From: Fibrobacterales bacterium
Lineage (GTDB): Bacteria > Fibrobacterota > Fibrobacteria > Fibrobacterales > JAOPTW01
Length of the DNA: 30,078 nt
NCBI GenBank assembly: GCA_051532055.1
Contig: JAOPTX010000010.1
Span: 167,613-197,690, forward strand
Direction: 5' to 3'
Of the stretch, positions 1,883 to 30,027 are shown piece by piece (the first letter of the stretch is position 1; each line of letters opens with the position of its first letter). The notes under the pieces were generated by a model. It worked only from the letters and a program-made list of their open reading frames with translations. It had not been told where the DNA came from and did no database searches. A program made the translations under genes and the position numbers.

Positions 1883-2007
1883 GTACCAAAATTTCTTAGA
1901 GATATGGAACATACTATTATTAATGTAAAAAGGTGTTTGGTTATTAGGATTGATGGGTGTTATTTTGTAGACTTTAGCGTGAACTTTATAACTTTTGGAA
2001 CCTATAT

Positions 2008-3564: not shown

Positions 3565-3583
3565 CTACGAACCCATACTTTTT

Positions 3584-3613
3584 AAAAGGCTAGTAATTTA
3601 CTGGCCTTTTTTT
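3584..3613 (+). terminator. Intrinsic terminator
   Basis: AAAAGGCTAGTA-ATT-TACTGGCCTTTT hairpin plus T run; homologous to the terminator at 1852. Confidence 0.85.
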
Positions 3614-3755
3614 GTACCTAAACTTGAACTAGATATGGCTGTTAGTGCTCCTGACTTGTGAGCGCTTATGTTGAGTAATTAATAGATGTACTATGTTTTG
3701 TCTCTTATTCTGTCTATACTTAGAGAAACAACCTATTTATTGAACAGAGGAAATT

Positions 3756-6670: not shown

Positions 6671-6682
6671 CGTGATGCCTCC

Positions 6683-10216: not shown

Positions 10217-10236
10217 ACCATTCTCCGTATATTATC

Positions 10237-11148: not shown

Positions 11149-11162
11149 GGTATTTCCTTTTC

Positions 11163-11882: not shown

Positions 11883-13802
11883 CTATTCGTCAGCACTATC
11901 TGTCCAAATGACTCCTTCTTCAAGCCAGTTAATATCTTCTTCAAGAACACTCGCTGCGAGCTTAACTCGTTTATGGTCACAGTTGTCAGAGAGGTCATCA
12001 AAAAGCTTAGCCACTCTATTCTCGGCATCGAGGGAATAGACATCAGCTAAGTAGAGTGGGGTCATGTCATCACCGTTTTTTTCAAAAAGTGATATGGCGT
12101 ATGAACAGGTTGTAGCAATAACAAAGAGTTCAGTGCCAATATCCATAAGTCGTCCCAGTACCATCTGTTTGCTTTCAAGTTTCTCTTGGTAAAGTCCCAT
12201 ATAATGAAAGATAGTTCGGGCGAGTTTATGGCTGGTGGATTCTACAAATTTATAGTGCTTCGCAAGCTTTCCTTTATCCGTATGGCTATTCCAGAGACTA
12301 GAATTGATCCACTGTTTAGGGTACCATTTGGCGTAAAAGGATGCAAGCTGTACCCCGGCGTGGAGTTTCTTGTTTTTTGGACCGTGTTTTTTAATTAGGT
12401 CTGCAGCGATTTTAAGGTGGGGATCCATTGCTTCTCGTGCCAAAAATAGTTGCATGATGTCGCTAGTACCTTCAATGATCCGATTAATACGACAGTCGCG
12501 AAGCATCCTTTCTATAGGGAATGGGTCTTCGCCTCGAGCTTTGAGGGAGGACGCTTTCTCATAACCTCTTCCTCCTCGAAATTGGAGTGCGGTATCAATA
12601 AGTTCCCATGAACGTTCTGTTGACCATAGTTTTGCCATAGCGGCTTCAATTCTAATATCTTTATCTGGGTCATCAGCCCAGGCTGATGTGAGGAGTGATA
12701 CCGCTTCAAGAGCAAAGGTAGTGGATGCGACAAAAGATATTTTTTGTGCGCCTGCCTCATGTTCTCCGATAGGAGCTCCCCATTGTTTTCGCTTATTACC
12801 CCATCGACGCATATAACTGAGGCACTGTTTGGCCATACCAACACTTGATGCAGGGATAGTTAGGCGACCAGTATTAAGTGTTGCAAGGGCAAGTTTAAGT
12901 CCTTTACCTTTGCCCCAAATAATGTTGTCGACCGGTACGGTAACATCGGTAAATGTCATGATTCCATTTTGAATCGCTCGAATTCCCATAAAGTCGCAAC
13001 GATGGGTTACCTGAATACCAGGATATGATTTTTCTACGATAAAAGCAGTTATCTGCTTTACCTCACGACCATTAATGTCTTTGGGTTCTGTCTGAGCCAT
13101 TACTACCATTAGGTCGGCAATGGGTCCATTGGTACACCAGAGCTTTGTACCATTAATGACATAATGAGTTCCCTCTTCATTTAACACCGCAGTGGTTTGC
13201 ATCTGAGCAGGGTCAGAGCCAACACCCGGTTCAGTGAGCGCAAAGGCTGAAATTTTGCCTTCAGCAAATTGTGGGAGATACTTCTTTTTTTGTGCTTCAG
13301 TGCCGAAAAGTTTTAACGGTTGTGGAATACCAATAGATTGGTGAGCTGATATGAAGACGGCAGTTGATGCGCACCATGATGTAATCGCGGCCATGACTCG
13401 ACCATAATTTACCTGAGAGAGTCCCAGGCCATTATACTCCTTGGGAACTTTCATGGCAAATAGATTCATTTTTTTGAATCCTTCGATAATTTCATCGGGA
13501 ATCGTTCTGGTTTCATCTACCTCTTCGGCGTCAAGATTTTCTTTTAAGAACACTGATACTTCTTTTACTAGAGTATCTCCAATGTGGCGTTCGCTTTCAC
13601 TTTGGATCGGAAAAGGAAAGATTGCATCGAGGTCAAGGTTCCCCATAAAGATATTGCCAGCAAAACTGGCACTTTTCCAAACCTCTTCACGTGCATCTTC
13701 GGTCAGGTTGAGTGCTGATGCTTTACCTTCAGACATATGTGAGGTATCTATGAGCATTTCTGGGTCTTCTATTTCTTGTGGTTCATTTGTATTGTCAGAC
13801 AT
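11883..13802 (-). CDS. fadE: Acyl-CoA dehydrogenase (long, VLCAD/ACAD9-like)
   Basis: AFALTEPGVGSD, INGTKLWCTNG, LNTGRL, GGRGY, RDCRINRIIEGT (catalytic Glu), C-terminal extension. Confidence 0.92.
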   Translation of the reverse strand: MSDNTNEPQEIEDPEMLIDTSHMSEGKASALNLTEDAREEVWKSASFAGNIFMGNLDLDAIFPFPIQSESERHIGDTLVKEVSVFLKENLDAEEVDETRTIPDEIIEGFKKMNLFAMKVPKEYNGLGLSQVNYGRVMAAITSWCASTAVFISAHQSIGIPQPLKLFGTEAQKKKYLPQFAEGKISAFALTEPGVGSDPAQMQTTAVLNEEGTHYVINGTKLWCTNGPIADLMVVMAQTEPKDINGREVKQITAFIVEKSYPGIQVTHRCDFMGIRAIQNGIMTFTDVTVPVDNIIWGKGKGLKLALATLNTGRLTIPASSVGMAKQCLSYMRRWGNKRKQWGAPIGEHEAGAQKISFVASTTFALEAVSLLTSAWADDPDKDIRIEAAMAKLWSTERSWELIDTALQFRGGRGYEKASSLKARGEDPFPIERMLRDCRINRIIEGTSDIMQLFLAREAMDPHLKIAADLIKKHGPKNKKLHAGVQLASFYAKWYPKQWINSSLWNSHTDKGKLAKHYKFVESTSHKLARTIFHYMGLYQEKLESKQMVLGRLMDIGTELFVIATTCSYAISLFEKNGDDMTPLYLADVYSLDAENRVAKLFDDLSDNCDHKRVKLAASVLEEDINWLEEGVIWTDSADE

Positions 13803-13809
13803 ACAGTCC

Positions 13810-15951
13810 TCACTGGTAAAAGGTTTGGTTTTTACTTGCTTTTTCTGTTAAAAGTGGTGCGGGCTCGAACCGAGAGCCGTATTGCCGGGTTAAGAGTTCA
13901 AGTTCTGAAACAATTTTTTTAAGGCCAATACTATCTGCATATCTCAGTGGGCCACCTCTGAATGGGGGGAACCCGGAGCCAAGTATCATTGCCATATCAA
14001 GATATTCGGGGCTTTGTACGATACCCTCTTCTATACAGCGTGCAGACTCGTTAATCATTGAGTATATGCAGCGCTTAATTATAGTATCGGTGTCGATTGG
14101 TGAGGTAGTGGTGAGGAATTCATTTCTAATCGTTATTACTTCAGGATTTACGGATTGTTTTTTGCCTGAATGGAGATAGAAACCCTTACCACTTTTTTTA
14201 CCACGGAGAGAAGAATTAGCCATAAGTGAATCAAATATTGGAGCTGTTTTCATTCGCTCACCATATCCCTCTTCGAGAATTTTTGCAACATGATACCCTA
14301 TGTCTATGCCTACCTCATCGGTAAGGGTAAAGGGACCCATAGGCATTCCATAGTCAAGAATTATCTTGTCAATTTCTTCGATGTCACCGCCTTCCTGCCA
14401 GAGTTTTACTGCTTCGTTGAGATAGGGAATTAATATGCGGTTGACCAAAAATCCTGGACAGTCTTGAACGACAATGGGAGTTTTGCCAAGTTTTTTACTG
14501 AGGGTAACGACCGAGGCAATAACCGAGTTCGAACTCTCTTTCCCTGCAATCACCTCTACAAGGGGCATTCTGTTCACAGGATTAAAAAAGTGCATCCCAA
14601 CAAATTTTGACGGCCGTTCAAGTGCCGAAGCCATCTCGGTAATAGAGAGGGATGATGTGTTGGATGCGAGGATAGCATTCGGGGGGAGGTGGTCTTCGCA
14701 TTCTTTAAGGACTTTCTTTTTGACTTCCATATTTTCGACAACTGCTTCTATAGCAATATCACGATCTGAAAATCCGGTAAAATCTAGTGTTCCACCAATG
14801 TGCTGCATCTTAACAGCAACTTGGTGTTTGTTGAGCTTCCGTATTTTAATAAGCTGGCCATACATTTTGGCAGCAGAACTAAAACCAATATTGATTGCCC
14901 CCCACGTAATGTCTTTCATACGGACAGAAATGTCTTTCATACTGAGGGCCCAGGCAATGCCACCACCCATGATTCCTGCTCCAATAACAGCAGCAGAATC
15001 GATATGTTTTATTTCAACATCTTCGGGTACTCCCGTTTCTTTTTTGAGTGCCTCAGAAGTAAAGAATACTTGAATAAGGTTTTTTGAAATGTCTGTAACT
15101 GCAACGTTTGCAAAATGCTCTCGTTCTATAGCGTACCCGTTTGAAGATACTGGGTAGGTTTGCTCAATAACAGCAAGAGCTACAAGTGGTGCAGGATATT
15201 GACCTTTCGTTTTAGCAAAGAGTAGTTTTTTTGTTTTGCTATACACTATTTTTCGGCCCATTGATGTGCTTTCAAATACTTTTTGTATCAGCACTTTATT
15301 AGTGCGTCTCTTTTGTGATTTTTTTAAGAATGAAGAATCCTCAAGTAGATTTTGTAGGATTTTTTCAGATTCATCCTTAAAAAATTCCTTTTTGAAATAC
15401 GTATCAATTATTTTGAATCGATACCCTTTTTTGGTGTCAAATACTTTTGCACCAAGTATCAGATCAAGTGCGGTAGTCAGGCCAGTAATATGAGGGAGTC
15501 TCTGAGTGCCACCAAAACCAGGAATAATACCGAGTGATACTTCAGGGAGGCCCAGTTTACATTTTGGGTTATCAGAGGCAATACGAAGATCACAAGCGAG
15601 TGCTAACTCCATACCACCCCCTAAACATGCACCGTCAATGAGGGCTATAGTAATAAAAGGGAGGGATGCAATAAGATTACAGATGTCTTGGCCGTATTGC
15701 GCTTTTTGCATTGCGTCACTTGGATTTACAATATCTTTAATTTCTGAGATATCTGCACCTGCAATAAAGCAGCCTTCTTTGGCAGAGGTAAAGGCGACGA
15801 CTTTAAGAGTAGCGCGCCCCTTGATGTTTTCGAGTATGGTTTTTAGTTCTTTAAGAACGGAGCTTCCGAGAGTATTTACTCGGGAGTCTGCTTGATTAAA
15901 GGTGATAGTTGCAAGTCCTGAATCAGCTATGTCGAGTGTTACATTACTCAT
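13810..15951 (-). CDS. fadJ: Multifunctional enoyl-CoA hydratase / 3-hydroxyacyl-CoA dehydrogenase (FadJ/FadB)
   Basis: FIAGADI, CLGGGMELALACD, LPEV (crotonase); GAGIMGGG, SNTSSL, GMHFFNPV, GFPPFRGGP (HCDH). Confidence 0.9.
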   Translation of the reverse strand: MSNVTLDIADSGLATITFNQADSRVNTLGSSVLKELKTILENIKGRATLKVVAFTSAKEGCFIAGADISEIKDIVNPSDAMQKAQYGQDICNLIASLPFITIALIDGACLGGGMELALACDLRIASDNPKCKLGLPEVSLGIIPGFGGTQRLPHITGLTTALDLILGAKVFDTKKGYRFKIIDTYFKKEFFKDESEKILQNLLEDSSFLKKSQKRRTNKVLIQKVFESTSMGRKIVYSKTKKLLFAKTKGQYPAPLVALAVIEQTYPVSSNGYAIEREHFANVAVTDISKNLIQVFFTSEALKKETGVPEDVEIKHIDSAAVIGAGIMGGGIAWALSMKDISVRMKDITWGAINIGFSSAAKMYGQLIKIRKLNKHQVAVKMQHIGGTLDFTGFSDRDIAIEAVVENMEVKKKVLKECEDHLPPNAILASNTSSLSITEMASALERPSKFVGMHFFNPVNRMPLVEVIAGKESSNSVIASVVTLSKKLGKTPIVVQDCPGFLVNRILIPYLNEAVKLWQEGGDIEEIDKIILDYGMPMGPFTLTDEVGIDIGYHVAKILEEGYGERMKTAPIFDSLMANSSLRGKKSGKGFYLHSGKKQSVNPEVITIRNEFLTTTSPIDTDTIIKRCIYSMINESARCIEEGIVQSPEYLDMAMILGSGFPPFRGGPLRYADSIGLKKIVSELELLTRQYGSRFEPAPLLTEKASKNQTFYQ

Positions 15952-17239
15952 GGTCTACCTCCAGTAAGAGGGCCCCGCCCTGTCCGCCGCCAATACAAAG
16001 GGTTGCGATGCCTCGTTGAGCACCTCTTCGTTTTAACTCTTTAAGAAGAGTGAGAACAAGTCGCGTTCCGGTAGCTCCAACAGGGTGCCCAATAGCGATT
16101 GCGCCGCCATTAACATTAATGATATCAGGATCTATAGCGCCAACTGCAGTATCTGAATGGAGATAGTGTTTAGAAAAGTCGTCTGACTCAAAAGCTTTGA
16201 GGTTTCCGATGATTTGTGATGCAAATGCTTCATTCATTTCTATGAGATCTATATCTGAAATAGAGAGCCCTGTTTTTTGTAATAACTTTGCAGTTGAATA
16301 AACAGGGCCAAGTCCCATTCTATTTGGAGGGAGTCCAGCATAGCTATAATCACTTAAATACCCTAAAGGAGTTAAATTGAGTTCTTTGGCGCGTGATTCT
16401 GTCATGATAAGGAGCATTCCCGCGCCATCAGTAAGTGGACAAGCGTTGCCAGGGGTGACTGAACCACTGACTGGTTCAAAAACAGGACGGAGCTTACCCA
16501 GTGCCTTCATATTTTGTTCAGCTCTGATTCCGGTGTCTCTGTCAATAAGGTTTTTGTAACTCGGTGGATTGGGAGTGGGTATCAGTTCTTCAGCGAGTAT
16601 CCCTGTCTCTTGGGCTTTTGCTGCTTTGTGATGACTCTCCATCGCGTACCGGTCCTGTTCTTCCCGAGTTATGCCAAATTCTCGAACAAGTACCTCAGCA
16701 GTTTGCCCCATATTGAGTGAACACGTAGGGTCTGTTAGTCCTTGAATGACGGCTATATCGGGTTTTAAGTGAGAGAGTCTAAATGTCGAAAGGGTTTTTA
16801 ATTTTGCGAGAGTTCCTTTGGCTTTTTGGAGTGAACCAAAAAACTTGGTCATTGCACTATTAAAAAGAAGGGGATAGTTACTCATTGATTCAGCCCCACC
16901 GACAATCATGATGGACGCTTCACCTGCGAGTATTTTGTTGGTTGCGGTGGTGAGTGATTCGAATCCCGAAGCACAGTTTCGGTTGACGGTATAGGCTGGG
17001 ATCGAAAGAGGAAGGCCTGCTTTAATAGCAATAATGCGAGCTATATTTGCTTTGTCTGAAGGTTGTCCGACATTCCCAATGATAACTTCGTCTATGAGAT
17101 GTGGGTCAATTGGGACCCGTTCTAATAATTCCTTAAGAATGTGAGCTCCAAGGTCATCGGCAGGTGTTCCATTGAAGTCAGTTCCCGCTTTACAAAATGG
17201 GGTTCGGAGTCCATCAATTATTGCTATTCTCTCTTTCAT
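15944..17239 (-). CDS. fadI: 3-ketoacyl-CoA thiolase (FadI/FadA)
   Basis: NRNCASG (active Cys), NEAFA, GHPVGATG, CIGGGQG; 8-nt overlap with the next gene. Confidence 0.9.
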   Translation of the reverse strand: MKERIAIIDGLRTPFCKAGTDFNGTPADDLGAHILKELLERVPIDPHLIDEVIIGNVGQPSDKANIARIIAIKAGLPLSIPAYTVNRNCASGFESLTTATNKILAGEASIMIVGGAESMSNYPLLFNSAMTKFFGSLQKAKGTLAKLKTLSTFRLSHLKPDIAVIQGLTDPTCSLNMGQTAEVLVREFGITREEQDRYAMESHHKAAKAQETGILAEELIPTPNPPSYKNLIDRDTGIRAEQNMKALGKLRPVFEPVSGSVTPGNACPLTDGAGMLLIMTESRAKELNLTPLGYLSDYSYAGLPPNRMGLGPVYSTAKLLQKTGLSISDIDLIEMNEAFASQIIGNLKAFESDDFSKHYLHSDTAVGAIDPDIINVNGGAIAIGHPVGATGTRLVLTLLKELKRRGAQRGIATLCIGGGQGGALLLEVDHE

Positions 17240-17241
17240 GG

Positions 17242-19008
17242 TTACACCTCTATTTCTGGATACATGGCTGAAATTTCTTCACTAAATTTTTTATCAATAA
17301 CATGACGACGGAGTTTCATAGTAGGAGTAAGTTCACCTGATTCAATTGAAATGGGTTGAGGTATAATAGTGAATGCTTGAATTTGTTCCCAATGATCGAG
17401 CTTTTTATTTACTCGTTGTATGATTTCCTCGATATGGTTTCGGTAAATTTTTGAATTGATAAATTCGTCATCACTCATTTTGGACGCTTTAAATTTACGT
17501 TTTACTTGTGGGATTATTTCGAAGTCAGGAAAAATAAGACAACTGGCAAATTTTCGGTTATCAGCAATAACGGCTGCTGCTTCTATTGTTTTAGTAAGAC
17601 AGAGACGGTGTTCTATGGGGAGAGGTGATACATACTTTCCTGTGGATGTTTTGAAGAGTTCTTTAATGCGACCCAGGAGAACAAGGAATCCGTCTTCATC
17701 AAATGAACCCCGGTCACCGGTGTGGAGCCATCCATCTTTTATGATTTTCTCTGTTTCCGTGGGCATGTTGTGATATCCCTGCATTAAGTTTTCACCTTGT
17801 GCGATCACTTCACCATCGTCAGAAATTTTTATGGTAACATTGGGGAAGGGGTGCCCGACCGTGCCAAGCTTATTACACCCTGGGAAGTTTGCAGCAATAA
17901 CAGGAGAGCACTCTGTAAGGCCATATCCTTGATAAACGGGAACTCCAATGTTGGTAAAAAATCGTCCAATTTTTGGGAAAAGTGCTGCGCCCCCAACTAT
18001 TGTCATTCTGAGTCGGCCACCAAGTCCATCTCTAATTTTAGAGTAGACTATTTTGTTGAGTATTCGGTATTGTAGCGTTGTTTGATCAAGATCGATACGC
18101 ATAGCATATCCAATGGCAATTTTAAGAAGGAGTTTTTTTATACCTCGTTCGGTATTCGGTTTGGCAAGAATTTTAGCATAGGCTTTCTCAAGTATGCGCG
18201 GTACCATTGTCATTATAGTTGGTTTCACCTCTTTCATGAATTCACCAACTTTTTTAACATCATCAACAAAATAGATACTCGCTCCTGAACTTACATAATA
18301 ATACATAACCATTCGCTCAAATACATGGGCGAGAGGGAGGCAGCTTAATATGGTATCAGAGTGAGAATCAATGGGGAACCGTTGAGCAGAACCATGTATT
18401 TGCATCGTTAAGCTTTGGTGAGTAAGTACCACACCCTTGGGGGTGCCTGTACTGCCGCTTGTGTAAATTATTGTTGCAATATCTTCCGGTGAAACCAAAT
18501 CACGCATTTTGCTATAGAGATCTGGTTCCTTCTCAGAGAGTTCATCTCCTGAGAGCAGTATGTCCTGTATATTGACAATGTTAGTTCCTTGAACTTGCAC
18601 GCTATTGGAAATGACTGTTTTAAAACGCCCAAACTCAGATTTGATATGATCTTCAATTTCATCGTCACCATCGATAAAGAGATATTTAATATTGCCATCT
18701 TTAACTTCGTGGTCAAAATGTTCATGAGAAATGTTGTGAAACATCGGTATGGATACCGCTTTGTTGATCATAATAGCAACATCGACCATAAGCCATTGGG
18801 GGGATGGACGGGAGATTATGCCGACACCATCGCCTGGTTGAATACCTAATTGTTTGAAGCCGAGAGCGAGACGCCGAATGCGTTCAACAAATTTTGAGGT
18901 TGAGTAACTTTCCCAGCGATCAAGTATTTTGATATTGAGTGCTTTGGAATTACTGTATTGATTTAATACCTGCTGAATCATTTCGGGTATGGTATTGAAA
19001 TCATGCAT
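17242..19008 (-). CDS. fadD: Long-chain fatty acid-CoA ligase
   Basis: YTSGSTGTPKGV, QGYGLTE, TGD, GRIKE..GKYVSP, TPTMKLRR. Start placed at ATG 19008 (GGAGG RBS), not 19074. Confidence 0.92.
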   Translation of the reverse strand: MHDFNTIPEMIQQVLNQYSNSKALNIKILDRWESYSTSKFVERIRRLALGFKQLGIQPGDGVGIISRPSPQWLMVDVAIMINKAVSIPMFHNISHEHFDHEVKDGNIKYLFIDGDDEIEDHIKSEFGRFKTVISNSVQVQGTNIVNIQDILLSGDELSEKEPDLYSKMRDLVSPEDIATIIYTSGSTGTPKGVVLTHQSLTMQIHGSAQRFPIDSHSDTILSCLPLAHVFERMVMYYYVSSGASIYFVDDVKKVGEFMKEVKPTIMTMVPRILEKAYAKILAKPNTERGIKKLLLKIAIGYAMRIDLDQTTLQYRILNKIVYSKIRDGLGGRLRMTIVGGAALFPKIGRFFTNIGVPVYQGYGLTECSPVIAANFPGCNKLGTVGHPFPNVTIKISDDGEVIAQGENLMQGYHNMPTETEKIIKDGWLHTGDRGSFDEDGFLVLLGRIKELFKTSTGKYVSPLPIEHRLCLTKTIEAAAVIADNRKFASCLIFPDFEIIPQVKRKFKASKMSDDEFINSKIYRNHIEEIIQRVNKKLDHWEQIQAFTIIPQPISIESGELTPTMKLRRHVIDKKFSEEISAMYPEIEV

Positions 19009-19987
19009 TGGAGCCTCCAAATATATAGGGTTCAAATGAGCGTACAATTGTTCGCTCAAGCCCAGAGTGGCCAAATGTGTGCCATGGGCGGTTTTCTATG
19101 GGTGTAATTCTTGATTTGTTTTTTGCTAATTGATCGATATCACTAATGAGGTCTTTAGCTGCGGTAACGCCTGCGCGCATAATAGAATCCAATTGGTGAA
19201 AGTCAGTCCAATGAATTCCTTGTAAATCTGGCTGTATAACAATGTCGGAACAATAATGTAGTTCAGAGTGAATATGGTGATAGATGAGCTCACCCTGTCG
19301 GAAAAGCATGTCGAGCCCGGTGTTGGGCACGTAATGTTGAGTAGGAACTGAGGTGACGTCAACTGAAATAATAATGTCAACGGGGTCAACGTAAAAGGCT
19401 TGTATGGGGACTGGATATACTTGTTGGGAATCTGTAAGAAGTCTATCTCCTAGTGGGATTGGAGGGAAATATCCCGCAATACTTGTTGCGGCAATAATCG
19501 ATTCTTGTATGTTGCCTTTATTAATAAGTACTTGTTGTCCAGTGACAGCGTCTACGGTGCAGACATACATTTTTTGAGGAAGTGTTTCGAGGTTACCAGG
19601 GTGTATGTATTGATCGACGATATTTTTTATAATAGTAGCATCTTCAACATTAGGCTTGGTAACGAGGTGGAAAAACTTGAATGCTTGATCGACACGCTTT
19701 ACCATTCGTTTATGAAGAGGCATTGCGGTGTGTTCTTGAGCTTCGGCATATTGCATTTTTTTAAACTCTTGGGCAAACCGTAATACAAATTGTTTAAACG
19801 TTGTATTGGTCTTGTCAAAGGTGCTATGTTGCATATAGGCAATGGGGATTAGTGAGCCCATTGAAGAACCAGCGATAATATCAACTTCGATGTTTGACTT
19901 TTTCAGCATGCGGAGAATGCCGAGATGTGCAAAAGCACGAGCTCCACCACCACCCAACGCTAATCCAATTCGTAACCCTTTATACAT
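19001..19987 (-). CDS. Patatin-like phospholipase/esterase (RssA/NTE-like)
   Basis: GGGGARAFAH oxyanion motif, GSSMG nucleophile elbow, Asp motif as DSQ; overlaps the fadD start by 8 nt. Confidence 0.88.
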   Translation of the reverse strand: MYKGLRIGLALGGGGARAFAHLGILRMLKKSNIEVDIIAGSSMGSLIPIAYMQHSTFDKTNTTFKQFVLRFAQEFKKMQYAEAQEHTAMPLHKRMVKRVDQAFKFFHLVTKPNVEDATIIKNIVDQYIHPGNLETLPQKMYVCTVDAVTGQQVLINKGNIQESIIAATSIAGYFPPIPLGDRLLTDSQQVYPVPIQAFYVDPVDIIISVDVTSVPTQHYVPNTGLDMLFRQGELIYHHIHSELHYCSDIVIQPDLQGIHWTDFHQLDSIMRAGVTAAKDLISDIDQLAKNKSRITPIENRPWHTFGHSGLERTIVRSFEPYIFGGSNA

Positions 19988-20048
19988 TCTTTCCCTGGTG
20001 TATTTTGAAAATTTCGTAGCTACATCTTTCTAGAAAATGTGCGTTTTT

Positions 20049-20057
20049 ATTATATCA
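20049..20057 (-). promoter_or_regulatory. Extended -10 promoter of the patatin-fad operon
   Basis: Consensus TGATATAAT on the - strand about 60 nt upstream of the patatin ATG. Confidence 0.6.
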
Positions 20058-20398
20058 TAGAAATGAAAAATATGAGAGAGATTCTGCTATAAATTATTGG
20101 TTTATTTTAAAAAATTGAGTTTATGGTTGGTTTAGCTGTAAATGGCGTTTTGGGATTAAAAAAGCTTGTTATAATGTGGTGATGTATAAAGACATGTGGA
20201 GATTCATGCTTTGGGAGAACTATTTTATGGCTCGCCTAGGTGTCGAATCCACAATCGAGTAATTAAGAGTCACTTATTTAACTCATCGAGTTAATAGGCT
20301 TATTTGGTATTGTTCCATTAGATTTATCTCGACTGTTTATTAAATGTATCTGACTTTATGGGGAATAAGGATTTCAATAGGTTTTAGTAAGGATCTAA

Positions 20399-20407
20399 TG
20401 GTATACT
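20399..20407 (+). promoter_or_regulatory. Extended -10 promoter of HDOD gene 1
   Basis: TGGTATACT; the same TGnTATACTG occurs upstream of HDOD gene 2. Confidence 0.5.
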
Positions 20408-20433
20408 GTTGAATGAAAGTTTAGCTTGAAACT

Positions 20434-21309
20434 GTGATGACATCTTCAATAAAAAATAGTAGTCTCTTTAAAAAAATGATAGAGGATATACCGGTTCCCC
20501 CCAAGCCGACTAACCTCATAAATTTCTTACATGCCTTGAATCAGGATGGGGTTGATATTGGAGTCTTGTCAAAAACCATCACTCAGGATTTAGCTATAAG
20601 TACAGCCATACTTAAAACAGTCAATTCACCCTTTTTAAATATGTCTCAAGAAATTATTTCGATTCAACAAGCAATAGTGTTGCTCGGTCTCGATAACATT
20701 AAAAACCTTCTGTTGTGCTTTTCATTAAAAAGTGCATTTGATAGTTCTGACGACCTTTTCTTGCAAGAATTTTGGAAACAGACCTATGGTGTCTCTCTTA
20801 TTAGTGCGGCACTTGCTCATACGATAACGAATAAACCGAGTGATGAAGCTTTTACCTTTAGTATGGTGTGTGATATAGCAGTGCCAGCAATTGCAGCAGT
20901 AAACAGTGGATATGGCGAACTGTATATAGAACATAGTTTTAGTGAATCTGCATGTGTAATAGATGTTGAAAATAAGAATTATTACATTGATCATTGTGTG
21001 GTGGGTGAATTTATAGCACATCACTGGAACTTGCCACCTTTTTTAAGTAAAGGGATAGAGCTGCATCATACCTATACTGAAAATTTTGGGTATGAGTTTA
21101 ATAGAGGAAATGCTGATTCGATTGTATTTACGGCAATTCACTATCTTGCTGAACATGTGTATGGATCATATAAAGGGAATAATGATTCGTTTGAATGGCG
21201 CAGTGTAAAACCTCAGGTCTTTTCTGTGTTGGGAATAAGAGACGAATTAGTGTCCCAACTTAAAAGTAATTTATTGAGTCTTTATGAAGAAGCTACTTTT
21301 AATTCATAA
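20434..21309 (+). CDS. Stand-alone HDOD domain protein
   Basis: IPVPPKP, QDLAISTAILKTVNSPF, SIQQAIVLLGL, DHCVVG..IAHHWNLP..HH. Start is GTG 20434 or ATG 20437. Confidence 0.88.
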   Translation: MMTSSIKNSSLFKKMIEDIPVPPKPTNLINFLHALNQDGVDIGVLSKTITQDLAISTAILKTVNSPFLNMSQEIISIQQAIVLLGLDNIKNLLLCFSLKSAFDSSDDLFLQEFWKQTYGVSLISAALAHTITNKPSDEAFTFSMVCDIAVPAIAAVNSGYGELYIEHSFSESACVIDVENKNYYIDHCVVGEFIAHHWNLPPFLSKGIELHHTYTENFGYEFNRGNADSIVFTAIHYLAEHVYGSYKGNNDSFEWRSVKPQVFSVLGIRDELVSQLKSNLLSLYEEATFNS

Positions 21310-21380
21310 ATTGTAGATCGTCTTTTACTCTAATTATACAAGAGTATTCCTGTAATCGCGGGTGCGCAGTATTTCAGCAT

Positions 21381-21495
21381 TCTAACAGTATTCTAACTGT
21401 TCTCATTGGTATCTCACATATCTAACCTCTGCGACATGCCCCCTCCCCATATTTAACCTGTGGCTCATGTATTTCTAACAATGCATTTCTACCTT
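21381..21495 (+). promoter_or_regulatory. Pho-box-like direct repeat array and -10 element
   Basis: TCTAAC-like hexamers at 21381/21392, 21401/21412, 21421 and 21452/21463/21474 (mostly 11-bp period); -10-like TACCTT at 21490. Confidence 0.7.
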
Positions 21496-21512
21496 ATGAG
21501 CAGAGTTAATTA

Positions 21513-21701
21513 GAACAGAATTATGATGGGCGAACAAAAGTACAAGTGGAATCCCTCGTAACTTTGGTGGACTGGATGATTCATGAGGGTTAGCAGTTTA
21601 CTAAACCGCAGTACTATGCGCCACTCCTCGCTAAAGCACTCGTTCAAGCCGAAGAAATACTTGCTTTAATTACCTAAAATGGTAAGGCAGTCCAAAAATA
21701 A
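21513..21701 (+). pseudogene. pstS: C-terminal remnant of phosphate-binding protein PstS
   Basis: Translates as EQNYDGRTKVQVESLVTLVDWMIHEG*QFTKPQYYAPLLAKALVQAEEILALIT*NGKAVQK*. It resembles PstS C-termini (W..GQ...YAPL...ITYNGK), has two internal stops (21591, 21675) and lacks the 5' part of the gene. Confidence 0.8.
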
Positions 21702-21706
21702 GAAAG

Positions 21707-21744
21707 TAACACTGTAGATTAGTTATTGGCTAATCTACAGGTTA
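21707..21744 (+). terminator. Strong hairpin after the pstS remnant (terminator or mRNA stabiliser)
   Basis: Perfect 11-bp stem CTGTAGATTAG / CTAATCTACAG plus outer TAAC/GTTA; weak U tail. Confidence 0.6.
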
Positions 21745-21774
21745 TTGATATCTTTTTAATTATAAGGATGTACA

Positions 21775-22455
21775 ATGAAGAAAATATTAATAATAGAAGA
21801 TGATGAAGATATCCGAGAGTTACTCAGCTACAACCTTACTCAAGAAGGGTATACGGTAATAGATGCTCCCGATGGACAAAAAGGACTCGAAAAGTATTGG
21901 AATGATACTCCTCATCTGGTACTGCTTGACATAATGATGCCCGGAAAAAATGGTATTGATGTTTTGAAAGAAATCAGGAATGGTAAAATAGCACCCCACA
22001 CACCAGTAATCCTCATTTCTGCAAAAGGTGAAGAACTAGACATTGTAATGGGGCTTGAACTTGGTGCTGATGATTATGTGGTTAAACCGTTTAGTTTAAA
22101 AGTACTTTTTGCACGAATACGGAAAGTATTTTCAAAAGCGGTACAGAAAAGTGAGATGGTGACCGATATAATTTCCCATTATGAAATTACAATTGATGAT
22201 AGCAAACGTAAAGTATCCTATGGGGATAATGAACTCGACCTCACTGCATCAGAATTTTCGGCGCTCTATTTCTTAATCTCTAATCCAGGAAGGGTCTATA
22301 CACGTAATCAGATTATTTCTGCGGTCCATGGAGATGACTATTTTGTCACCGACCGAAGTATCGATGTTCTTATCGTAAGTTTACGTAAGAAGATGGGGGA
22401 TGCCGGTAAACTTATCGAAACAATTAGAGGAGTAGGGTATAAATTCTCCGAGTAA
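21775..22455 (+). CDS. phoB: OmpR-family response regulator, PhoB-like
   Basis: IEDD, LLDIMMPG (phospho-Asp), GLELGADDYVVKPFS, DRSIDV, ETIRGVGY; phosphate gene context. Confidence 0.85.
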   Translation: MKKILIIEDDEDIRELLSYNLTQEGYTVIDAPDGQKGLEKYWNDTPHLVLLDIMMPGKNGIDVLKEIRNGKIAPHTPVILISAKGEELDIVMGLELGADDYVVKPFSLKVLFARIRKVFSKAVQKSEMVTDIISHYEITIDDSKRKVSYGDNELDLTASEFSALYFLISNPGRVYTRNQIISAVHGDDYFVTDRSIDVLIVSLRKKMGDAGKLIETIRGVGYKFSE

Positions 22456-24214
22456 TACCAAAAAGCGACGCCTCTTTTGGGATATTCTTCCTTCATATGT
22501 TTTGATAATAGTAATATCTATTATCACACTTGGTTGGTTTTCAACACTTACCATTCGTGACACTTCAATTACTAGTCTTGAAAAAGATCTTACAGCCCGG
22601 TCTACTATCGTTGATAAAGTTTTTTCTCAACTCTATAATGAATCCCAAGGTTATATTGAAGCGCTTAATATATTGAGTATTAAAACCGAAACACGGGTTA
22701 CTGTTATTCAAGGTGATGGACTCGTAATTTTTGATTCTCACAAAAACATTCAATTGATGGATAATCACTATTATCGTCCCGAAATTATTGATACTCGGAA
22801 GTCAGGTACTGGTTCAGCTATTCGCTATAGTAATACCATAAATAAAGAAATGGTTTATAGTGCAGTGCGCTCTGAGGTTCCCGATGTTGTTATTCGAACC
22901 GCTGTTCCTATGACTGCGGTTGAATCGTTTATTGCTGGCTATACTCAGAGAGTTGTGTTTGCCGGGACCTTTACACTGCTCTTTGCAATATTTGTTGCCA
23001 TAATAATATCTAAACGTATTACTGATCCACTGACAACGTTGAGGGAAGGCGCTCAAGTTATAGCTGAAGGTCATTTACAACATAAATTACCCGACTATGA
23101 GTGGTACGAAATGTCATCACTCTCCCAGTCTATGAATGAAATGTCATCCCAACTTATGCAACGTATTACTGTCGCTAATGATCAAAAGAACGAATTGGAA
23201 GCGGTGTTTGCGAGTATGAATGCTGGCATTGTAGCGATAGATAAGAAAGGGATTCTCTCTCGGTACAATAATTCATTTCTCCAAATGTTTTTATTAACAA
23301 ACGATAGGGCAAAGAAGAGAAAGCTGACCCATATTATAGGTGAAAATCAATTGGATGAATTATTACAACATATTCACCAAACCTCAAACCCGGTAGATGC
23401 TGATATTGAAATAACGAATGGTGATGAAGGACGAGTGTTTCATGTTCGTGGGTCAGTATTACTCGATGTCAATGGCAACGATATCGGTGCGCTTCTTGTT
23501 TTTAATGATGTGACAAAAATCCGAGAACTAGAAAACATGCGGTCTCAATTTGTCTCAAATGTATCACATGAATTACGCACTCCCATTACTTCAATTCAAG
23601 GGTATATTGAGACCCTTCTTAATGGTGCCATTAATGATATAGCAGCACGTGATAAATTCCTTGGGGTTATCCAAAAGCAAGCAGGTCGTTTGGCCGCGAT
23701 TATTGAAGACCTTTTAGCTCTTTCACGCATCGAAAAGAGTGATGATATGCTCATAAGAAAAGAAGAATGCATTAAAGAGGTAGTTGATTCTGCAATACAG
23801 TTAACAAAAATTGCTGCAGAAGAGAAGAACATCACTCTTGTAAATGCTATTGATGAGAGTATTGCCCTTTCTGTAAATGCGAACCTTATTGAACAGGCTT
23901 TGGTGAATTTGATTAATAATTCGATTAAATATACTGATGATGGAAAAGTAATCACGATGAGCTCGGTTGTTGAAAAGAATGCCATTTCTATTGTAGTAGA
24001 GGATCAAGGGTTTGGTATTGATAAAATGCACTTAAAGCACTTATTTGAACGTTTTTATCGAGTCGATAAGGCGCGGAGTAGAAATGTTGGCGGAACTGGC
24101 CTTGGACTCTCAATTGTAAAACATATTGTGCAGATCCATGGTGGAATTGTGGATGTTGAGAGTGAAGTAGATGTCGGTTCGAGATTTAGTATGAAATTCC
24201 CTAAGGTTATTTAA
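22439..24214 (+). CDS. phoR: Sensor histidine kinase, PhoR-like (start uncertain: ATA 22439 or TTG 22502)
   Basis: Two TM helices, periplasmic MDNHYYRPEI motif, HAMP, PAS, FVSNVSHELRTP H-box, FERFYRVDKARSR..GGTGLGLSIVKH. Confidence 0.85.
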   Translation: MNSPSNTKKRRLFWDILPSYVLIIVISIITLGWFSTLTIRDTSITSLEKDLTARSTIVDKVFSQLYNESQGYIEALNILSIKTETRVTVIQGDGLVIFDSHKNIQLMDNHYYRPEIIDTRKSGTGSAIRYSNTINKEMVYSAVRSEVPDVVIRTAVPMTAVESFIAGYTQRVVFAGTFTLLFAIFVAIIISKRITDPLTTLREGAQVIAEGHLQHKLPDYEWYEMSSLSQSMNEMSSQLMQRITVANDQKNELEAVFASMNAGIVAIDKKGILSRYNNSFLQMFLLTNDRAKKRKLTHIIGENQLDELLQHIHQTSNPVDADIEITNGDEGRVFHVRGSVLLDVNGNDIGALLVFNDVTKIRELENMRSQFVSNVSHELRTPITSIQGYIETLLNGAINDIAARDKFLGVIQKQAGRLAAIIEDLLALSRIEKSDDMLIRKEECIKEVVDSAIQLTKIAAEEKNITLVNAIDESIALSVNANLIEQALVNLINNSIKYTDDGKVITMSSVVEKNAISIVVEDQGFGIDKMHLKHLFERFYRVDKARSRNVGGTGLGLSIVKHIVQIHGGIVDVESEVDVGSRFSMKFPKVI

Positions 24215-24254: not shown

Positions 24255-24309
24255 CCTAATCAGTAATTGTTAGGTTTCTAATAGAAATCTAACAATTCTA
24301 TTCTATACT
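24255..24309 (+). promoter_or_regulatory. Pho-box-like promoter of Na/Pi cotransporter 1
   Basis: CCTAAT 24255, TCTAAT 24277, TCTAAC 24288 (11-bp register), TATACT at 24304; same geometry as the promoter at 21474-21495. Confidence 0.7.
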
Positions 24310-24371: not shown

Positions 24372-26522
24372 ATGAAAATTTCGACTAATGCGTTTCGCAC
24401 ACTGTGTGTGATGTTCATGGTAGTCATGAGCGTATCAATAAACCTTTGGGCAACAGAGGCACAGCCCCTTCCTTTAAACTTAGAGTCTCAGCCTGTAGGA
24501 CAGGTTGTCTATGAAGAGAAAGAGTATGATTTGGTAGTTGCGCCAAATCACTCATTTGAATTGCTTCCCAAGGCTGTAGATCTTTCTTTACAAAAAGAGA
24601 ATGTTTTTACTGGAGTCGTTCGGTTATATAAAAAAGAGATACCTCTGAAGGGCACAAAGCTCACCTTTAAAGATGAAATGGGTAAAGAGGTTACCACAAA
24701 AAGTAATCGTGATGGAGAGTTTACTGTAAAAGGCCTTACGGGAAAAGAATTTAAAGTATCGGCTTCTCTTAAAAAGCATGAACTGAATGGGGCTACAATT
24801 TCTATCGCTGGACCAGAGGTAAAAGACCTCACTATCATCATGGCTTCTGAAGCCGATGTGATGAAAATGGTATTCTCGGTTCTTGGTGGGCTGGGTATTT
24901 TCTTACTTGGGATGCGCTATATGTCAGATGGACTTCAGACCGTTTCTGGACCATCTCTCAAGCGTATGATTTCATTGGTTACCGATAACCGTTTTCTTGC
25001 AACAGGTGTGGGAGTTGCAGTAACGTGCTTTGTTCAGTCGAGTTCAATAACTACGGTCATGGCAGTTGGATTTGTTAACTCTGGTATTATGGCATTGAAT
25101 CAGGCAATAGGCGTGATATTAGGTGCTAATATTGGTACGACCATTACGGGCTGGATTCTTGTGTTGAAAATTGGTAAATGGGGCCTTCCACTTATTGGTG
25201 TGTTTGCTTTTGTATTTCTCTTTTCTAAAAGAGAGAAGCTCAGATATTTTGCATTGGTATTTATTGGTGTCGGTATGGTTTTCTTTGGGTTAGAGCTGAT
25301 GAAAAATGGTTTCAAGCCTATCAGATCAATGCCTGAGTTTTCAGAAATGTTCGCACTCTTTCAAGCAACATCTTATTTGAATGTCTTAAAAATTGCAGCT
25401 ATAGGATGTATTCTTACCATGATTGTTCAGTCATCTTCTGCAACACTCGGTATAACAATAGGTCTTGCGTCTACAGGAGTTATTGGCTTTGAAACTGCAG
25501 CCGCTCTGGTACTCGGTGAAAATATTGGTACTACCATTACAGCGCTTCTTGCTTCAATTGGCACCACTACAAATGCACGGAGAGCGGCATACTTTCATGC
25601 ACTCTTTAATGTAGCGGGGGTGCTCTGGATAACGGCAATTTTTCAATATTATCTACCGCTCGTTATAAGTGTTGTAGGGCATGACCCTAATATGATGGTA
25701 ATGAAAGATGGTTCAGAAACGTATCCCTATATCACTGCGGGTATAGCATCGACTCATACTATTTTTAATATAGTGAACACTTTAATTTTTCTTCCTTTTA
25801 CAGGCTACATAGCAAACTTCCTCATGAAATTTGTTAAAGACGCTAAGGTAAAGCCTGCAGAAATGATTACCAATCTTCAGTATTCTATGATTGGTACTCC
25901 ATATGCGTCAGTACAACAGTCTAAGCTTGAAATTGATAAGATGGAAGTAGCAGCAAAAGAGATGATGGATGACCTTAAAAAAGTGCTCTCAAATGATTCT
26001 AATAGAGATACTCTTATTAAAAAGATCTTTAAAGATGAAGATATACTCGATGTTATGCAGAAAGAGATCACCGAGTTCTTGACAGAATTCTTGAGTACAC
26101 AGATTCCACAGGATGTAGCTGAGACTGCTAAAGAACATTTAAGAATGTGTGATGAGCTTGAGTCGGTATCTGATTATGTAATGCAAATTGTAAAATTACA
26201 ACTGCGTCTTGAAGATAATGATGTTGCCCTATCTCAAAATAGAATGAATAGTATCATCGAGTTACACGATACCGTTAAAGAGTTCTTTGATTTTGTTATG
26301 GTGTGTGAGAGCAAAGAACAGGTACAAGAACAGTTCACTGCTATTTCAGATAAAAGTGATGCTATTACCCGTCAAATTAGAACACTTCGTAATGATTATT
26401 GGAAAATTGCTTCTGAAGAAAAAGTTAATCCTATGGTAAGTACTACTTATACGGATATTCTTCAATCGTATCGAAAAATTAAGAACCATATCCTTAATGA
26501 GGCTGAAGTACAAACGTTATAA
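24372..26522 (+). CDS. nptA: Na/Pi cotransporter (NptA/YjbB family) with N-terminal extracytoplasmic domain and C-terminal PhoU-like domain
   Basis: GGLGIFLLGM, two QSSS motifs, GANIGTT/GENIGTT, helical C-terminus; about 160-aa N-terminal extension beginning with a signal-peptide-like segment. Confidence 0.88.
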   Translation: MKISTNAFRTLCVMFMVVMSVSINLWATEAQPLPLNLESQPVGQVVYEEKEYDLVVAPNHSFELLPKAVDLSLQKENVFTGVVRLYKKEIPLKGTKLTFKDEMGKEVTTKSNRDGEFTVKGLTGKEFKVSASLKKHELNGATISIAGPEVKDLTIIMASEADVMKMVFSVLGGLGIFLLGMRYMSDGLQTVSGPSLKRMISLVTDNRFLATGVGVAVTCFVQSSSITTVMAVGFVNSGIMALNQAIGVILGANIGTTITGWILVLKIGKWGLPLIGVFAFVFLFSKREKLRYFALVFIGVGMVFFGLELMKNGFKPIRSMPEFSEMFALFQATSYLNVLKIAAIGCILTMIVQSSSATLGITIGLASTGVIGFETAAALVLGENIGTTITALLASIGTTTNARRAAYFHALFNVAGVLWITAIFQYYLPLVISVVGHDPNMMVMKDGSETYPYITAGIASTHTIFNIVNTLIFLPFTGYIANFLMKFVKDAKVKPAEMITNLQYSMIGTPYASVQQSKLEIDKMEVAAKEMMDDLKKVLSNDSNRDTLIKKIFKDEDILDVMQKEITEFLTEFLSTQIPQDVAETAKEHLRMCDELESVSDYVMQIVKLQLRLEDNDVALSQNRMNSIIELHDTVKEFFDFVMVCESKEQVQEQFTAISDKSDAITRQIRTLRNDYWKIASEEKVNPMVSTTYTDILQSYRKIKNHILNEAEVQTL

Positions 26523-26674: not shown

Positions 26675-28867
26675 ATGAAAATGAAAATTGGGAAGTACAA
26701 TAAAATTATTTCGTTAGCGTTTCTTTTGTGTTTCACTTGTATAAGTAGTGCGAGTGAAAATGTATCACTGAGAGGCTCAAGTATCAGTGATACTCTTGCA
26801 GAGAGTATTGAGGTAAATGATGCTCCAAAAAATGTTGAGTTAGTTACTTCTGATAGTGAATTTTCTCTTACGGTCGATACCATGTCTCATGTAGGTATTC
26901 GTGGTGTGGTAAGAGCTTTTAATGATAAACAAGGTTTTAAAGCCAAGCATGCGGTGGAAAAAGTATCACTACTGTTGTGTAGTGGCTCTCTCGTAAAAAC
27001 AGAATCAAGTGATGAATTTAAGTATGGTTACAAATGTAATGGTACTGTTTTTAAACAAATTCATTCGGATATCGATGGACGATTTTCCATTGCACAAATT
27101 CCGAAAGGAACCTATTCTGTTGCTGTGCTTAAAAAACAACACTCTCTCTTTTCATCAACAGTAATAACTCAAAGTGGAGTTCCCACTGAATTACAGATTG
27201 TTGTTGTGAAAAGGCCTGATTTTAAATTGATGATCTTTTTTGTGATCGGAGGGTTAGGTATATTTCTTTTAGGTATGCGTTTTCTTTCTGATGGTCTCCA
27301 GACAGTTTCTGGACCGACTCTTAAGCGTATGATTAGCCTTGTCACCGATAATAGATTACTTGCAACGGGCGTTGGTGTCGTTGTAACTGGAGTGGTTCAA
27401 TCAAGCTCTATTACGACCGTGATGGCGGTTGGTTTTGTGAATTCGGGAATAATGGCGCTTAATCAGGCGATAGGGGTCATACTCGGTGCTAATATTGGGA
27501 CAACTATAACCGGTTGGATCATGGTGCTTAAAATAGGGAAATGGGGCCTTCCAATTATTGGGGTTTGTGTTTTTATTTATCTCTTCTCGAAGCGTGAAAA
27601 AATTAAGTACCTTGCGTTGGCGCTTATGGGACTCGGAATGATTTTCTTTGGTCTTGAACTCATGAAAGATGGATTCAAGCCAGTTAAAAATATGCCTGAG
27701 TTTATCGAGTGGTTTACCATGGTAAATGCGACTTCATTTGTCAATGTGATTAAATTGGCATCTATAGGATGTGTTCTTACCATGATAGTACAGTCCTCTT
27801 CAGCTACCCTTGGTATTGTGATTGGACTCGCGTCTACTGGTGTTCTTGAATTTGAAACTGCTGCTGCTCTTGTCGTAGGTGTGAATATAGGTACAACTAT
27901 TACAGCACTCATAGCGTCTATTGGAGTAAACACCAATGCACGGCGTGTTGCCTATTTCCACTGTATATTCAATGTCGTCGGGGCCTTGTGGGTTATTGTG
28001 ATATTCTATCAATATCTTGATATTGTTCGCATGCTTGTTCCCGAAGTTGAGGTAAATGGGGTAAAAGAATTTCCAATTCTTGCAGGTATTGCTATGACTC
28101 ATACGGTCTTTAATATTGTGAATACAGTGGTCTTCCTGCCTTTTACTGGGGTGATAGGAAATTTCTTAATGAAGATTGTGAAGGATAAGAAAATAGCTTC
28201 AAAAGACCTTGTCACAAACTTGCAGTACTCAATGCTCTCATCTCCCTATGCATCTATACAGCAATCAAAAATTGAAATTGATAAGATGGAGAAGAGTGCT
28301 AAAGAGATGATGGATGATCTAAGATTGATATTCTCGGGTTCTGAAAAGAAAGATGTGTATATTAAAAAAGTTTTTAAGGATGAAGATAAGCTTGATCTTA
28401 TGCAAAAGGAAGTAACTGAATTTCTTACTGAGTTTTTAAGTACTCAAATCCCTCAAGATGTTGCTGAGACTGCGAAGGACCATTTGAGAATGTGTGATGA
28501 ACTTGAGTCCGTGAGTGATTATGTAATGCAGATTCTAAAATTAAAACTTCGTTTGGAAGAGAATGACACTCGCTTTTCTTCGGAGCAGGTAAGTAATATC
28601 ATCGAGCTCCATGATACGGTTAAATCATTTTTTGATTACGTCATGGAATGTGGATCTAAAGAAGGAGTTCGAGATAAGTTTGCTGAGATTCTTGAAAAGA
28701 GTGATCAGATAACGCGTAAAATTAGAACACTGAGAAATGATTATTGGAAAATGGCCTCAGAGCAAAAAATTAATCCAATGGTCAGTACCTCATATACCGA
28801 TGTTCTCCAATCGTATCGTAAAATTAAGAATCACTTACTTAATGAAGTAGAGGTTCAAGCAGTATAA
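26675..28867 (+). CDS. nptA: Na/Pi cotransporter paralog 2, same fused architecture
   Basis: Two QSSS motifs, GANIGTT/GVNIGTT; core highly similar to paralog 1; divergent N-terminal extension of about 180 aa. Confidence 0.88.
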   Translation: MKMKIGKYNKIISLAFLLCFTCISSASENVSLRGSSISDTLAESIEVNDAPKNVELVTSDSEFSLTVDTMSHVGIRGVVRAFNDKQGFKAKHAVEKVSLLLCSGSLVKTESSDEFKYGYKCNGTVFKQIHSDIDGRFSIAQIPKGTYSVAVLKKQHSLFSSTVITQSGVPTELQIVVVKRPDFKLMIFFVIGGLGIFLLGMRFLSDGLQTVSGPTLKRMISLVTDNRLLATGVGVVVTGVVQSSSITTVMAVGFVNSGIMALNQAIGVILGANIGTTITGWIMVLKIGKWGLPIIGVCVFIYLFSKREKIKYLALALMGLGMIFFGLELMKDGFKPVKNMPEFIEWFTMVNATSFVNVIKLASIGCVLTMIVQSSSATLGIVIGLASTGVLEFETAAALVVGVNIGTTITALIASIGVNTNARRVAYFHCIFNVVGALWVIVIFYQYLDIVRMLVPEVEVNGVKEFPILAGIAMTHTVFNIVNTVVFLPFTGVIGNFLMKIVKDKKIASKDLVTNLQYSMLSSPYASIQQSKIEIDKMEKSAKEMMDDLRLIFSGSEKKDVYIKKVFKDEDKLDLMQKEVTEFLTEFLSTQIPQDVAETAKDHLRMCDELESVSDYVMQILKLKLRLEENDTRFSSEQVSNIIELHDTVKSFFDYVMECGSKEGVRDKFAEILEKSDQITRKIRTLRNDYWKMASEQKINPMVSTSYTDVLQSYRKIKNHLLNEVEVQAV

Positions 28868-29178: not shown

Positions 29179-30027
29179 ATGTCGATAAATAGTGTTCGTG
29201 AAAAACTTATTGAGGGGTTGATTCTGGATATCCCGCTTCCACCAAAACCAGAAATACTGTTACGTTTTGTTAGAGAAAGAGAACGTGATGAACTTGACCT
29301 TGAGGGGTTTGGAAATATCATTTCAAATGATATGGCTTTGGCATTGGCTATAATTAAAACTGTAAATTCATCATTTTTTGGTTTAGAGTATGAAGTACGT
29401 TCAGTGAACCATGCAATATCAATGCTGGGATTAGAAAATATTGAGAACCTTGTACTTGCTTTTTCTTTAGAAAGGTCGTTGAGTCAAGGAGACAGTTTTT
29501 TGCTCAATCAGTTCTGGGAGACAAACCGTATAAAGGCCCTTATTGGATCGAGTCTTGCAACGAGCTATACCCGGATCTCTTCAGATTTAGCCTATACCTT
29601 TTGTCTCATATGCGATTGTGGTGTACCTGCAATTATGAGGAAAGAGCAGAGTTATGCGGAGTTTTATGCCGGTATCGCCGATAAAGTTTCAGAAGATCAT
29701 GTTACTCAAGAAGAAGATATTTATATGTATAACCATGCTCAGGTTGGAGCGCACCTTCTTAAAGAGTGGCTTGTACCAGAAGATCTCATTCTAGGTGTTA
29801 AATATCACCACCATACTGATTTGCATGCTCTTGACATAACTCATGAGGTAAAGGTTTTAATCGCCTTACAGCACCTAGCAAGTGATATATTCTCTCGCTT
29901 TTATCATAATGAGTCTTACTACTACTGGAGTAATAGCATGGGTCAAAGCCTGGACTTACTCGATATTACTGATAAAGGGCTTGCGGGAATTGAGAAAAAC
30001 TTTAAGTTATTACTCGATGAGTTGTAG
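29179..30027 (+). CDS. Stand-alone HDOD domain protein (paralog 2)
   Basis: IPLPPKP, NDMALALAIIKTVNSSFFG, SVNHAISMLGL, NHAQVG..LKEWLVP..YHH. Confidence 0.88.
   Translation: MSINSVREKLIEGLILDIPLPPKPEILLRFVRERERDELDLEGFGNIISNDMALALAIIKTVNSSFFGLEYEVRSVNHAISMLGLENIENLVLAFSLERSLSQGDSFLLNQFWETNRIKALIGSSLATSYTRISSDLAYTFCLICDCGVPAIMRKEQSYAEFYAGIADKVSEDHVTQEEDIYMYNHAQVGAHLLKEWLVPEDLILGVKYHHHTDLHALDITHEVKVLIALQHLASDIFSRFYHNESYYYWSNSMGQSLDLLDITDKGLAGIEKNFKLLLDEL

Follow-up and report, generated by a model that had tools for sequence, protein, structure and literature searches.

Apparent remnant of a pstS 3' end ahead of phoBR in a Fibrobacterales genome

The window analysed here is a stretch of 30,078 nucleotides in which an HDOD gene (20434-21309) and a phoB-like gene beginning at 21775 are separated by a gap of 465 bases. 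The locus raises the question of what the DNA in this gap once encoded and how it came to stand in front of phoB. The reading preferred here, with a probability of roughly 0.85, is that positions 21513-21701 are the remnant of a pstS 3' end, left by a deletion that placed the final 62 codons of the gene behind a predicted PhoB-activated promoter. The window DNA is present in a marine metagenome. The features of the gap and the two regulatory genes behind it are as follows.

21381..21398, + strand: two Pho-box-like half-sites with a spacing of 11 bases, scoring under the pair threshold of 13 bits; resembles the single pair of the sister species (G001)
21452..21481, + strand: predicted PhoB site with Pho-box-like half-sites at 21452 and 21474 (22 bases apart), 16.9 bits; the 21474 site is kept in G001
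21490..21495, + strand: predicted -10 hexamer TACCTT, offset by 16 bases from where the last half-site begins; identical in G001, with the same offset found before nptA1
21496..21512, + strand: predicted transcript start region and deletion junction, without PstS similarity in any frame; continuous in DNA contigs of depth 535 and 527
21513..21701, + strand: pstS remnant (last 62 codons and stop codon), with nonsense codons at 21591-21593 and 21675-21677 and no frameshift
21705..21746, + strand: 19-pair hairpin, 3 bases past the pstS stop; kept in the sister species, no Rfam match
21775..22455, + strand: phoB-like response regulator; best NCBIfam match TIGR02154 with 216.9 bits, below the cut-off of 296.2
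22502..24214, + strand: phoR-like kinase with weak sCache-like, HAMP, PAS, HisKA and HATPase domains; best match below the curated cut-off; the true start is probably slightly upstream of 22502, as in G001

PstS homology and lesions of the remnant

Read in a single frame, 21513-21701 holds an internal TAG (21591-21593), an internal TAA (21675-21677) and a terminal TAA (21699-21701), and the translation given in a preliminary description of this DNA was reproduced exactly. The homology to the PstS C-terminus claimed there was borne out by pairwise searches. When P0002, a PBP_like_2 protein by domain search, was compared with the whole genome, the remnant was the only match (residues 283-342 of 345, 55% identity over 60 residues, E 4.6e-12), the next one having an E-value of 0.88. 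The score of 64.7 bits compares with at most 23.5 bits among 1000 shuffles of the intergenic region. The protein search with the remnant returned one match among 220 candidates, again P0002 (55% identity), and the PstS of the order-level relative G002, which passes TIGR00975, is 45% identical to the remnant (E 3e-8). Among 30 plasmid records, searched with the stops entered as X, the four lowest E-values (4e-6 to 3e-2) belonged to Deinococcus PstS proteins, the best of them matching at the extreme end of a gene that is followed by pstC, pstA and pstB. In an unindexed search, 21 of the 22 matches lay at most 25 residues from the C-terminus of the matched protein. The similarity of 21513-21701 to PstS is significant and lies at the C-terminus, as a PstS origin demands.

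Curated models gave a different outcome. The search with TIGR00975, proposed earlier as a check, found no match in the whole genome at E<=1; the remnant gave no match to this model, whose curated cut-off for a PstS protein is 205 bits, and scanning the fragment against NCBIfam, Pfam and PDB also returned none, its detection coming solely from pairwise searches and a profile built here. The start, the signal peptide and both lobes of PstS are absent from the remnant (62 codons, two stops, no upstream similarity). Across six frames no other part of pstS was found, and the similarity ends at 21513. The nearest kin are type I PstS proteins (TIGR00975) of the subgroup with the QNYxxR insertion, such as P0002, the G002 PstS and Deinococcus grandis BBN96499.1. 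Over the last 60 residues the remnant is 45-55% identical to P0002 and the G002 PstS and 37% to BBN96499.1, and WxxxxG, YAPL and the same end are common to them. Unlike type I PstS, it has lost about 280 N-terminal residues, the signal peptide and most of the binding site, carries two stops and lies in a genome in which no pstCAB or phoU was found. Judged by sequence, 21513-21701 represents the final 62 codons of a type I pstS gene.

The lesions were analysed in an alignment of 90 intact PstS proteins, comprising P0002 and 89 of 95 loci (six without a full frame were left out). The column of the first stop holds Gln in 72 of the 89 intact proteins having a residue there, and that of the second holds Tyr in 30 of 70. 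Both stops had been described as one base from the expected Gln and Tyr codons. This is true of L118, the closest intact gene by identity count, which has CAG and TAT at these columns, but for the first stop it does not extend to three other close intact genes, which have CAA, two bases from TAG. Within the LxYAPLP motif, Leu is changed to Gln (intact proteins: Leu 83/90, Gln 0/90) and Pro to Leu (Pro 75/90, Leu 0/90). The 25 closest proteins share 15 conserved columns; 5 of these are changed in the remnant, against 0-4 in the intact proteins.

It is scarcely credible that assembly error produced the junction or the stops, or that TAG and TAA are read through. The public DNA contigs do break exactly at 21497-21526, but the break is a 49-base tip of depth 5.9, the loose end of which we take to be library adapter sequence. 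The main contigs, 19900-21526 (depth 535) and 21497-21861 (depth 527), overlap there by 30 bases with 0 differences to the window. An RNA-library contig covers 21527-22697 in one piece, again with 0 differences, and since it is identical to the window it carries both stops, the hairpin and phoB. The DNA and RNA runs come from one sample, and the DNA run is possibly the source of the window. With these overlapping DNA contigs and the stops present in the RNA contig, the suspicion of a misassembly at about 21510 was not borne out. TAA terminates 1288 and TAG 585 of the 2108 long reading frames of the genome; as the two together terminate 1873, they are true stops here, and recoding was rejected.

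The remnant thus combines homology to a working gene with disabling lesions that are, in the one sample, artefacts neither of assembly nor of the code, which is how bacterial pseudogenes are recognised. As to a product or selection on the remnant, it has no ribosome site and no fold signal and is nearly absent in the sister species; it exists in one copy only, which gives no dN/dS. Ahead of the start codons in the leader, matches to a ribosome site never exceed 3 bases, against 4 for phoB, whose site is AAGGA at 21764-21768. The remnant showed no sign of structured RNA: it was no more stably folded than shuffled sequences (z -0.07 and -1.40), and Rfam gave no match. The remnant is an ordinary pseudogene overlooked by standard annotation and curated HMMs; it is probably non-coding and likely decaying without function of its own in the predicted phoBR 5' leader. 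Young bacterial pseudogenes tend toward fast deletion, according to Kuo and Ochman 2010 (PMC2916853). Set beside the deletion-eroded pseudogenes described there, the remnant is alike in being disabled, shortened by deletion, unannotated in a spacer and almost lost in the sister; it is unlike typical ones in lying inside the predicted leader of a live operon and in having persisted to gather several changes.

This persistence bears on whether the phoB leader has co-opted the remnant, as a regulatory RNA or a short leader peptide. It survived about 0.1 changes per site without a frameshift, though young pseudogenes tend to go fast (PMC2916853), and the RNA contig spans 21527-22697 in one piece. 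The sister species, however, does without the remnant, and neither a folding signal, nor an Rfam match, nor a good ribosome site for any short frame was found, which makes such a role very unlikely.

Promoter-like site, hairpin and predicted transcript

The Pho-box matrix was trained on 15 half-sites from relatives and applied with a threshold of 13 bits. The half-sites at 21452 and 21474 reached 16.9 bits, rank 5 of the 44 pairs at that spacing with at least 13 bits. The matrix is unspecific, giving 89 genome hits at 13 bits or more; phosphate genes were not singled out in the genome-wide scan, and the nptA1 pair fell under the threshold. In relatives, CTAAC repeats with an 11-base period lie upstream of pstB, pstS and phoB. 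Upstream of nptA1 (24277-24309) the same half-site stands at the same 16-base offset, here to TATACT; half-site and TATACT are kept in G001, while the DNA just upstream of them is not. The sigma-70 scan found no + strand promoter in front of the remnant. The hexamer TACCTT (21490-21495) ends 17 bases before 21513, in accordance with the distance of about 18 nt from the -10 to the remnant stated previously. A PhoB-activated promoter at 21452-21495 is a plausible prediction. The second-ranked pair of Pho-box-like half-sites at 11-base spacing lies at G000:C7:118526 in this genome (G000), ahead of a 142-residue frame; this frame presumably resembles an arsenate reductase or a low-molecular-weight phosphatase.

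The RNA run gave no cover over 19900-21526, and its contig begins about 30 bases past the predicted -10. Its start at 21527 fits a transcript start there, the contigs by themselves giving no start, strand or level. Two alike 11-base words (9/11 identical), 15 bases apart, flank the junction within 21496-21527; they may be due to chance or a trace of the deletion.

The strong hairpin reported after the remnant was recovered at 21705-21746. The fold of 21695-21790 has an energy of -26.7 kcal/mol and a z of -6.45, with 0/200 shuffles as stable. All 19 of its 19 pairs hold in both species, two of them by compensatory changes on both sides, a result from two sequences only that 134 of 500 shuffles also reach. 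Of 24 related pstS genes, 14 have a stable fold after their stop. The pattern scan calls a terminator at the hairpin on both strands; its U-rich tail is broken, and one RNA contig crosses the hairpin. An Rfam search gave 0 matches at E<=1.

Sister species, ancestral layout and the deletion

The sister species has an identical gene order at about 84% DNA identity, and its gap measures 211 bases compared to 465 in G000. Run X1 holds DNA like that of this genome and DNA like that of the sister together in one sample, with contig depths of about 530 and 273, and the G001 junction is present in the contig of depth 273 from the same DNA run. Within the G001 gap, the last half-site and TACCTT are followed by 36 bases up to the homologous TAA (203 in G000), then by the hairpin and the phoB leader. 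A sister genome had been suggested as the place to look for an intact pstS upstream of phoB, but G001 has there only about six PstS-like codons, its pstS having been removed at this same site by a deletion that reached further into the gene. These resemble PstS ends with p 0.0015 against 20000 random draws in a post hoc test. Since the homologous stop, the PstS-like last codons and the hairpin are all found in G001, the ancestor probably carried pstS, the hairpin and phoB one after another.

The same observations weigh against an insertion of pstS, or a piece of it, after the species split by phage or other transfer, followed by its failure. The best pairwise matches do lie outside the order (53-55% vs 39-45% for order relatives), and type I pstS occurs in just 14/208 genomes of the class. 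But the sister has the homologous stop, the PstS-like last six codons and the hairpin, and phage pstS loci matching the remnant at E<=1e-3 number 0/80 as against 35/95 cellular loci, which leaves a phage origin unsupported. A quick tree (17% of columns filled) puts the remnant in an unresolved group with four order relatives and one outsider (support 86). Such an insertion is extremely improbable.

The loss was dated relative to the species split, for which fourfold sites in eight neighbouring genes (1643 sites) gave 0.72 changes per site between the species, or 0.36 per lineage. Neutral decay of intact tails was simulated with a model free of indels, distant proteins standing in for the ancestor, and the remnant fitted best at about 0.08-0.15 changes per site. 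At 0.36 changes per site the share of 7200 simulated tails scoring as high as the remnant rounds to 0.000; by conserved mismatches 0.36 is borderline, 5.2% of simulations doing as well. Among intact tails, 8/25 score below the remnant. It is likeliest that pstS was functional in this lineage well after the species split, and the decay of about 0.1 vs 0.36 per lineage suggests that G000 and G001 lost pstS in separate events. A metagenome search with PhoB for a third close locus found no relative above 43% identity.

An intact pstS directly before phoB was found in none of 80 genome loci or 11 relatives' loci, nor in 80 phoB loci, 19 of them with pst or npt genes (a type II pstS would be missed there); the ancestral layout is therefore reconstructed and not observed. 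In pstSCAB-phoU-phoB(R) operons, pstS, a hairpin after its stop and phoB lie on one strand as they do here, but at this locus nothing stands between hairpin and phoB. The order pstSCAB-phoU-phoB was seen in 3/80 genome loci and 4/80 phoB loci. The counterparts of phoB and phoR in G002 and G033 adjoin the pst operon. Three of four order-level relatives (G002, G032 and G033) have pstS behind pstB-phoU, in the order pstB-phoU-pstS-pstC, while in G031 it comes first, behind Pho-like repeats. In view of the three, the deletion may have removed more than pstS. Of the deletion set out in the preliminary description, the loss of any start site and of most of pstS, with the last 60 or so codons and the hairpin retained, stands; that the promoter was pstS's own is a supposition.

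A larger deletion is a possible variant of the preferred reading, though we hold it only tentatively. In this variant the promoter would have been that of a pst operon ahead of pstS, either pstB-phoU or pstCAB, and a single event would have removed everything up to codon ~283 of pstS. The gene order in G002, G032 and G033 speaks for it, pstS being last in the operon in 2/80 other loci, as does the second half-site pair at 21381-21398, and it accounts without extra steps for a pstS still intact after the split. Yet neither intergenic region, nor any other part of G000, holds a trace of pstC, pstA, pstB or phoU, and pstC-pstA follow pstS in the three relatives, whereas the hairpin-phoB junction here is common with G001. 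Either the loss of pstCAB-phoU came first, leaving a lone pstS for a time, or these genes lay upstream or elsewhere and went later. A possible lone pstS is seen at L121:6146-7177, a related gene without pstCAB up to 6 kb upstream or 10 kb downstream. At L225 (G033:C191:42498-43504), pstS matches fall in two frames near the 3' end, a frameshift that is either an assembly error or early decay.

Under the preferred reading, with its remnant left by deletion, the common ancestor would have had pstS, hairpin and phoB in a row, and each species would have lost pstS by a deletion starting about 10-20 bases after the -10 and sparing promoter and hairpin. A predicted PhoB-activated transcript would start near 21500, cross about 200 untranslated remnant bases and deliver phoB and phoR, the remnant being a passenger. 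Selection would act to keep the promoter and, probably, the hairpin, whose likely role is to limit or stabilise the transcript reaching phoB. The nptA1 gene is likely transcribed from a PhoB promoter of its own. Phosphate uptake would now proceed by Na+/Pi cotransporters and Pit; judging from S. aureus in alkaline medium, PhoR would most likely be held in check by the PhoU domains of the cotransporters.

Phosphate genes of the genome and the control of PhoR

Two cotransporter genes follow phoR in the window.

24372..26522, + strand: nptA1, Na+/Pi cotransporter with PhoU domain; own Pho-box-like site at 24277-24309
26675..28867, + strand: nptA2, second Na+/Pi cotransporter with PhoU domain

A third PhoU-domain Na+/Pi cotransporter of this genome lies at G000:C23, about 39265-40881. 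In G000 and G001, PhoU domains are confined to three long Na+/Pi cotransporter frames each, and each genome has one Pit transporter. The products of nptA1 and nptA2 begin with an additional segment of about 160-185 residues, which gives a weak carboxypeptidase-regulatory-like match and which the G002 counterpart lacks.

Searches found no pstS, pstC, pstB, phoU or pitR in G000 (94% complete) or G001 (91%). No cognate pstC, pstA or pstB scored over cut-off in G000, and profiles from related pstC, pstA, pstB and phoU detected no remnants in its intergenic regions or elsewhere. The search for pstSCAB elsewhere in the genome, proposed in the preliminary description, accordingly came back empty in this 94% complete assembly. 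One pstC/pstA-like match, a 230-residue permease far under cut-off, was rejected. Frames of 141-162 residues at G000:C24:35203-35541 and C93:941-1273, and in G001:C20 and C75, align with the type II PstS model at positions 120-235 only. From its gene content, the lineage appears to have given up high-affinity phosphate uptake, the rest of the Pst/PhoU set not being found either. Across the class, pstC was found in 97/208 genomes (one of the 97, G171, is unpublished) and in 60/120 good-quality ones; since absence of Pst is common in this class, the surprise is limited.

In S. aureus the PhoU domain of NptA is a PhoR repressor and matters most in alkaline medium, according to Vermilya et al. 2026 (PMC13170248), in which this control is shown in part, with S. 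aureus mutants. In both S. aureus and this genome, PhoU-domain Na+/Pi cotransporters occur together with a PhoBR-type system. S. aureus has also PstSCAB, PhoU and PitR (PMC13170248), whereas none of these was found here; the NptA domains are therefore the sole PhoU-type domains detected. In enterobacteria, loss of pstSCAB-phoU generally turns the Pho regulon permanently on, as stated in PMC3511308. These genomes are thus natural cases for asking if the PhoU domain of NptA alone can control PhoR. A bolder history would give the genus ancestor a pstS-hairpin-phoBR-nptA-nptA unit, in which PstS was selected after the loss of pstCAB/phoU and served the cotransporters or the outer domain of PhoR; both daughters would then have discarded pstS separately, leaving PhoBR without Pst, PhoU and PitR and braked only by transporter-fused PhoU domains. 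This history is unlikely.

The remnant is a dated record that a co-occurring species pair held pstS at this place, likely until after their split, and that each species lost pstS while retaining the regulator, the promoter-like site and the hairpin. In the literature, searched by titles and abstract beginnings and without subscription papers or supplements, no report was found of a pstS remnant before phoBR or of the Pho system of this lineage.

Other parts of the window show further organisation. Stand-alone HDOD-like genes at 20434-21309 (Pfam-confirmed) and 29179-30027 flank the phoBR-nptA block on the same strand. Positions 91-5408 hold a tandem of three related lipoprotein-like frames, 518-580 residues long and containing Ser-rich linkers. 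The minus-strand stretches 6098-11585 and 11883-19987 hold what we take to be an rnf-like cluster and a fatty-acid oxidation-like cluster with a patatin-like gene.
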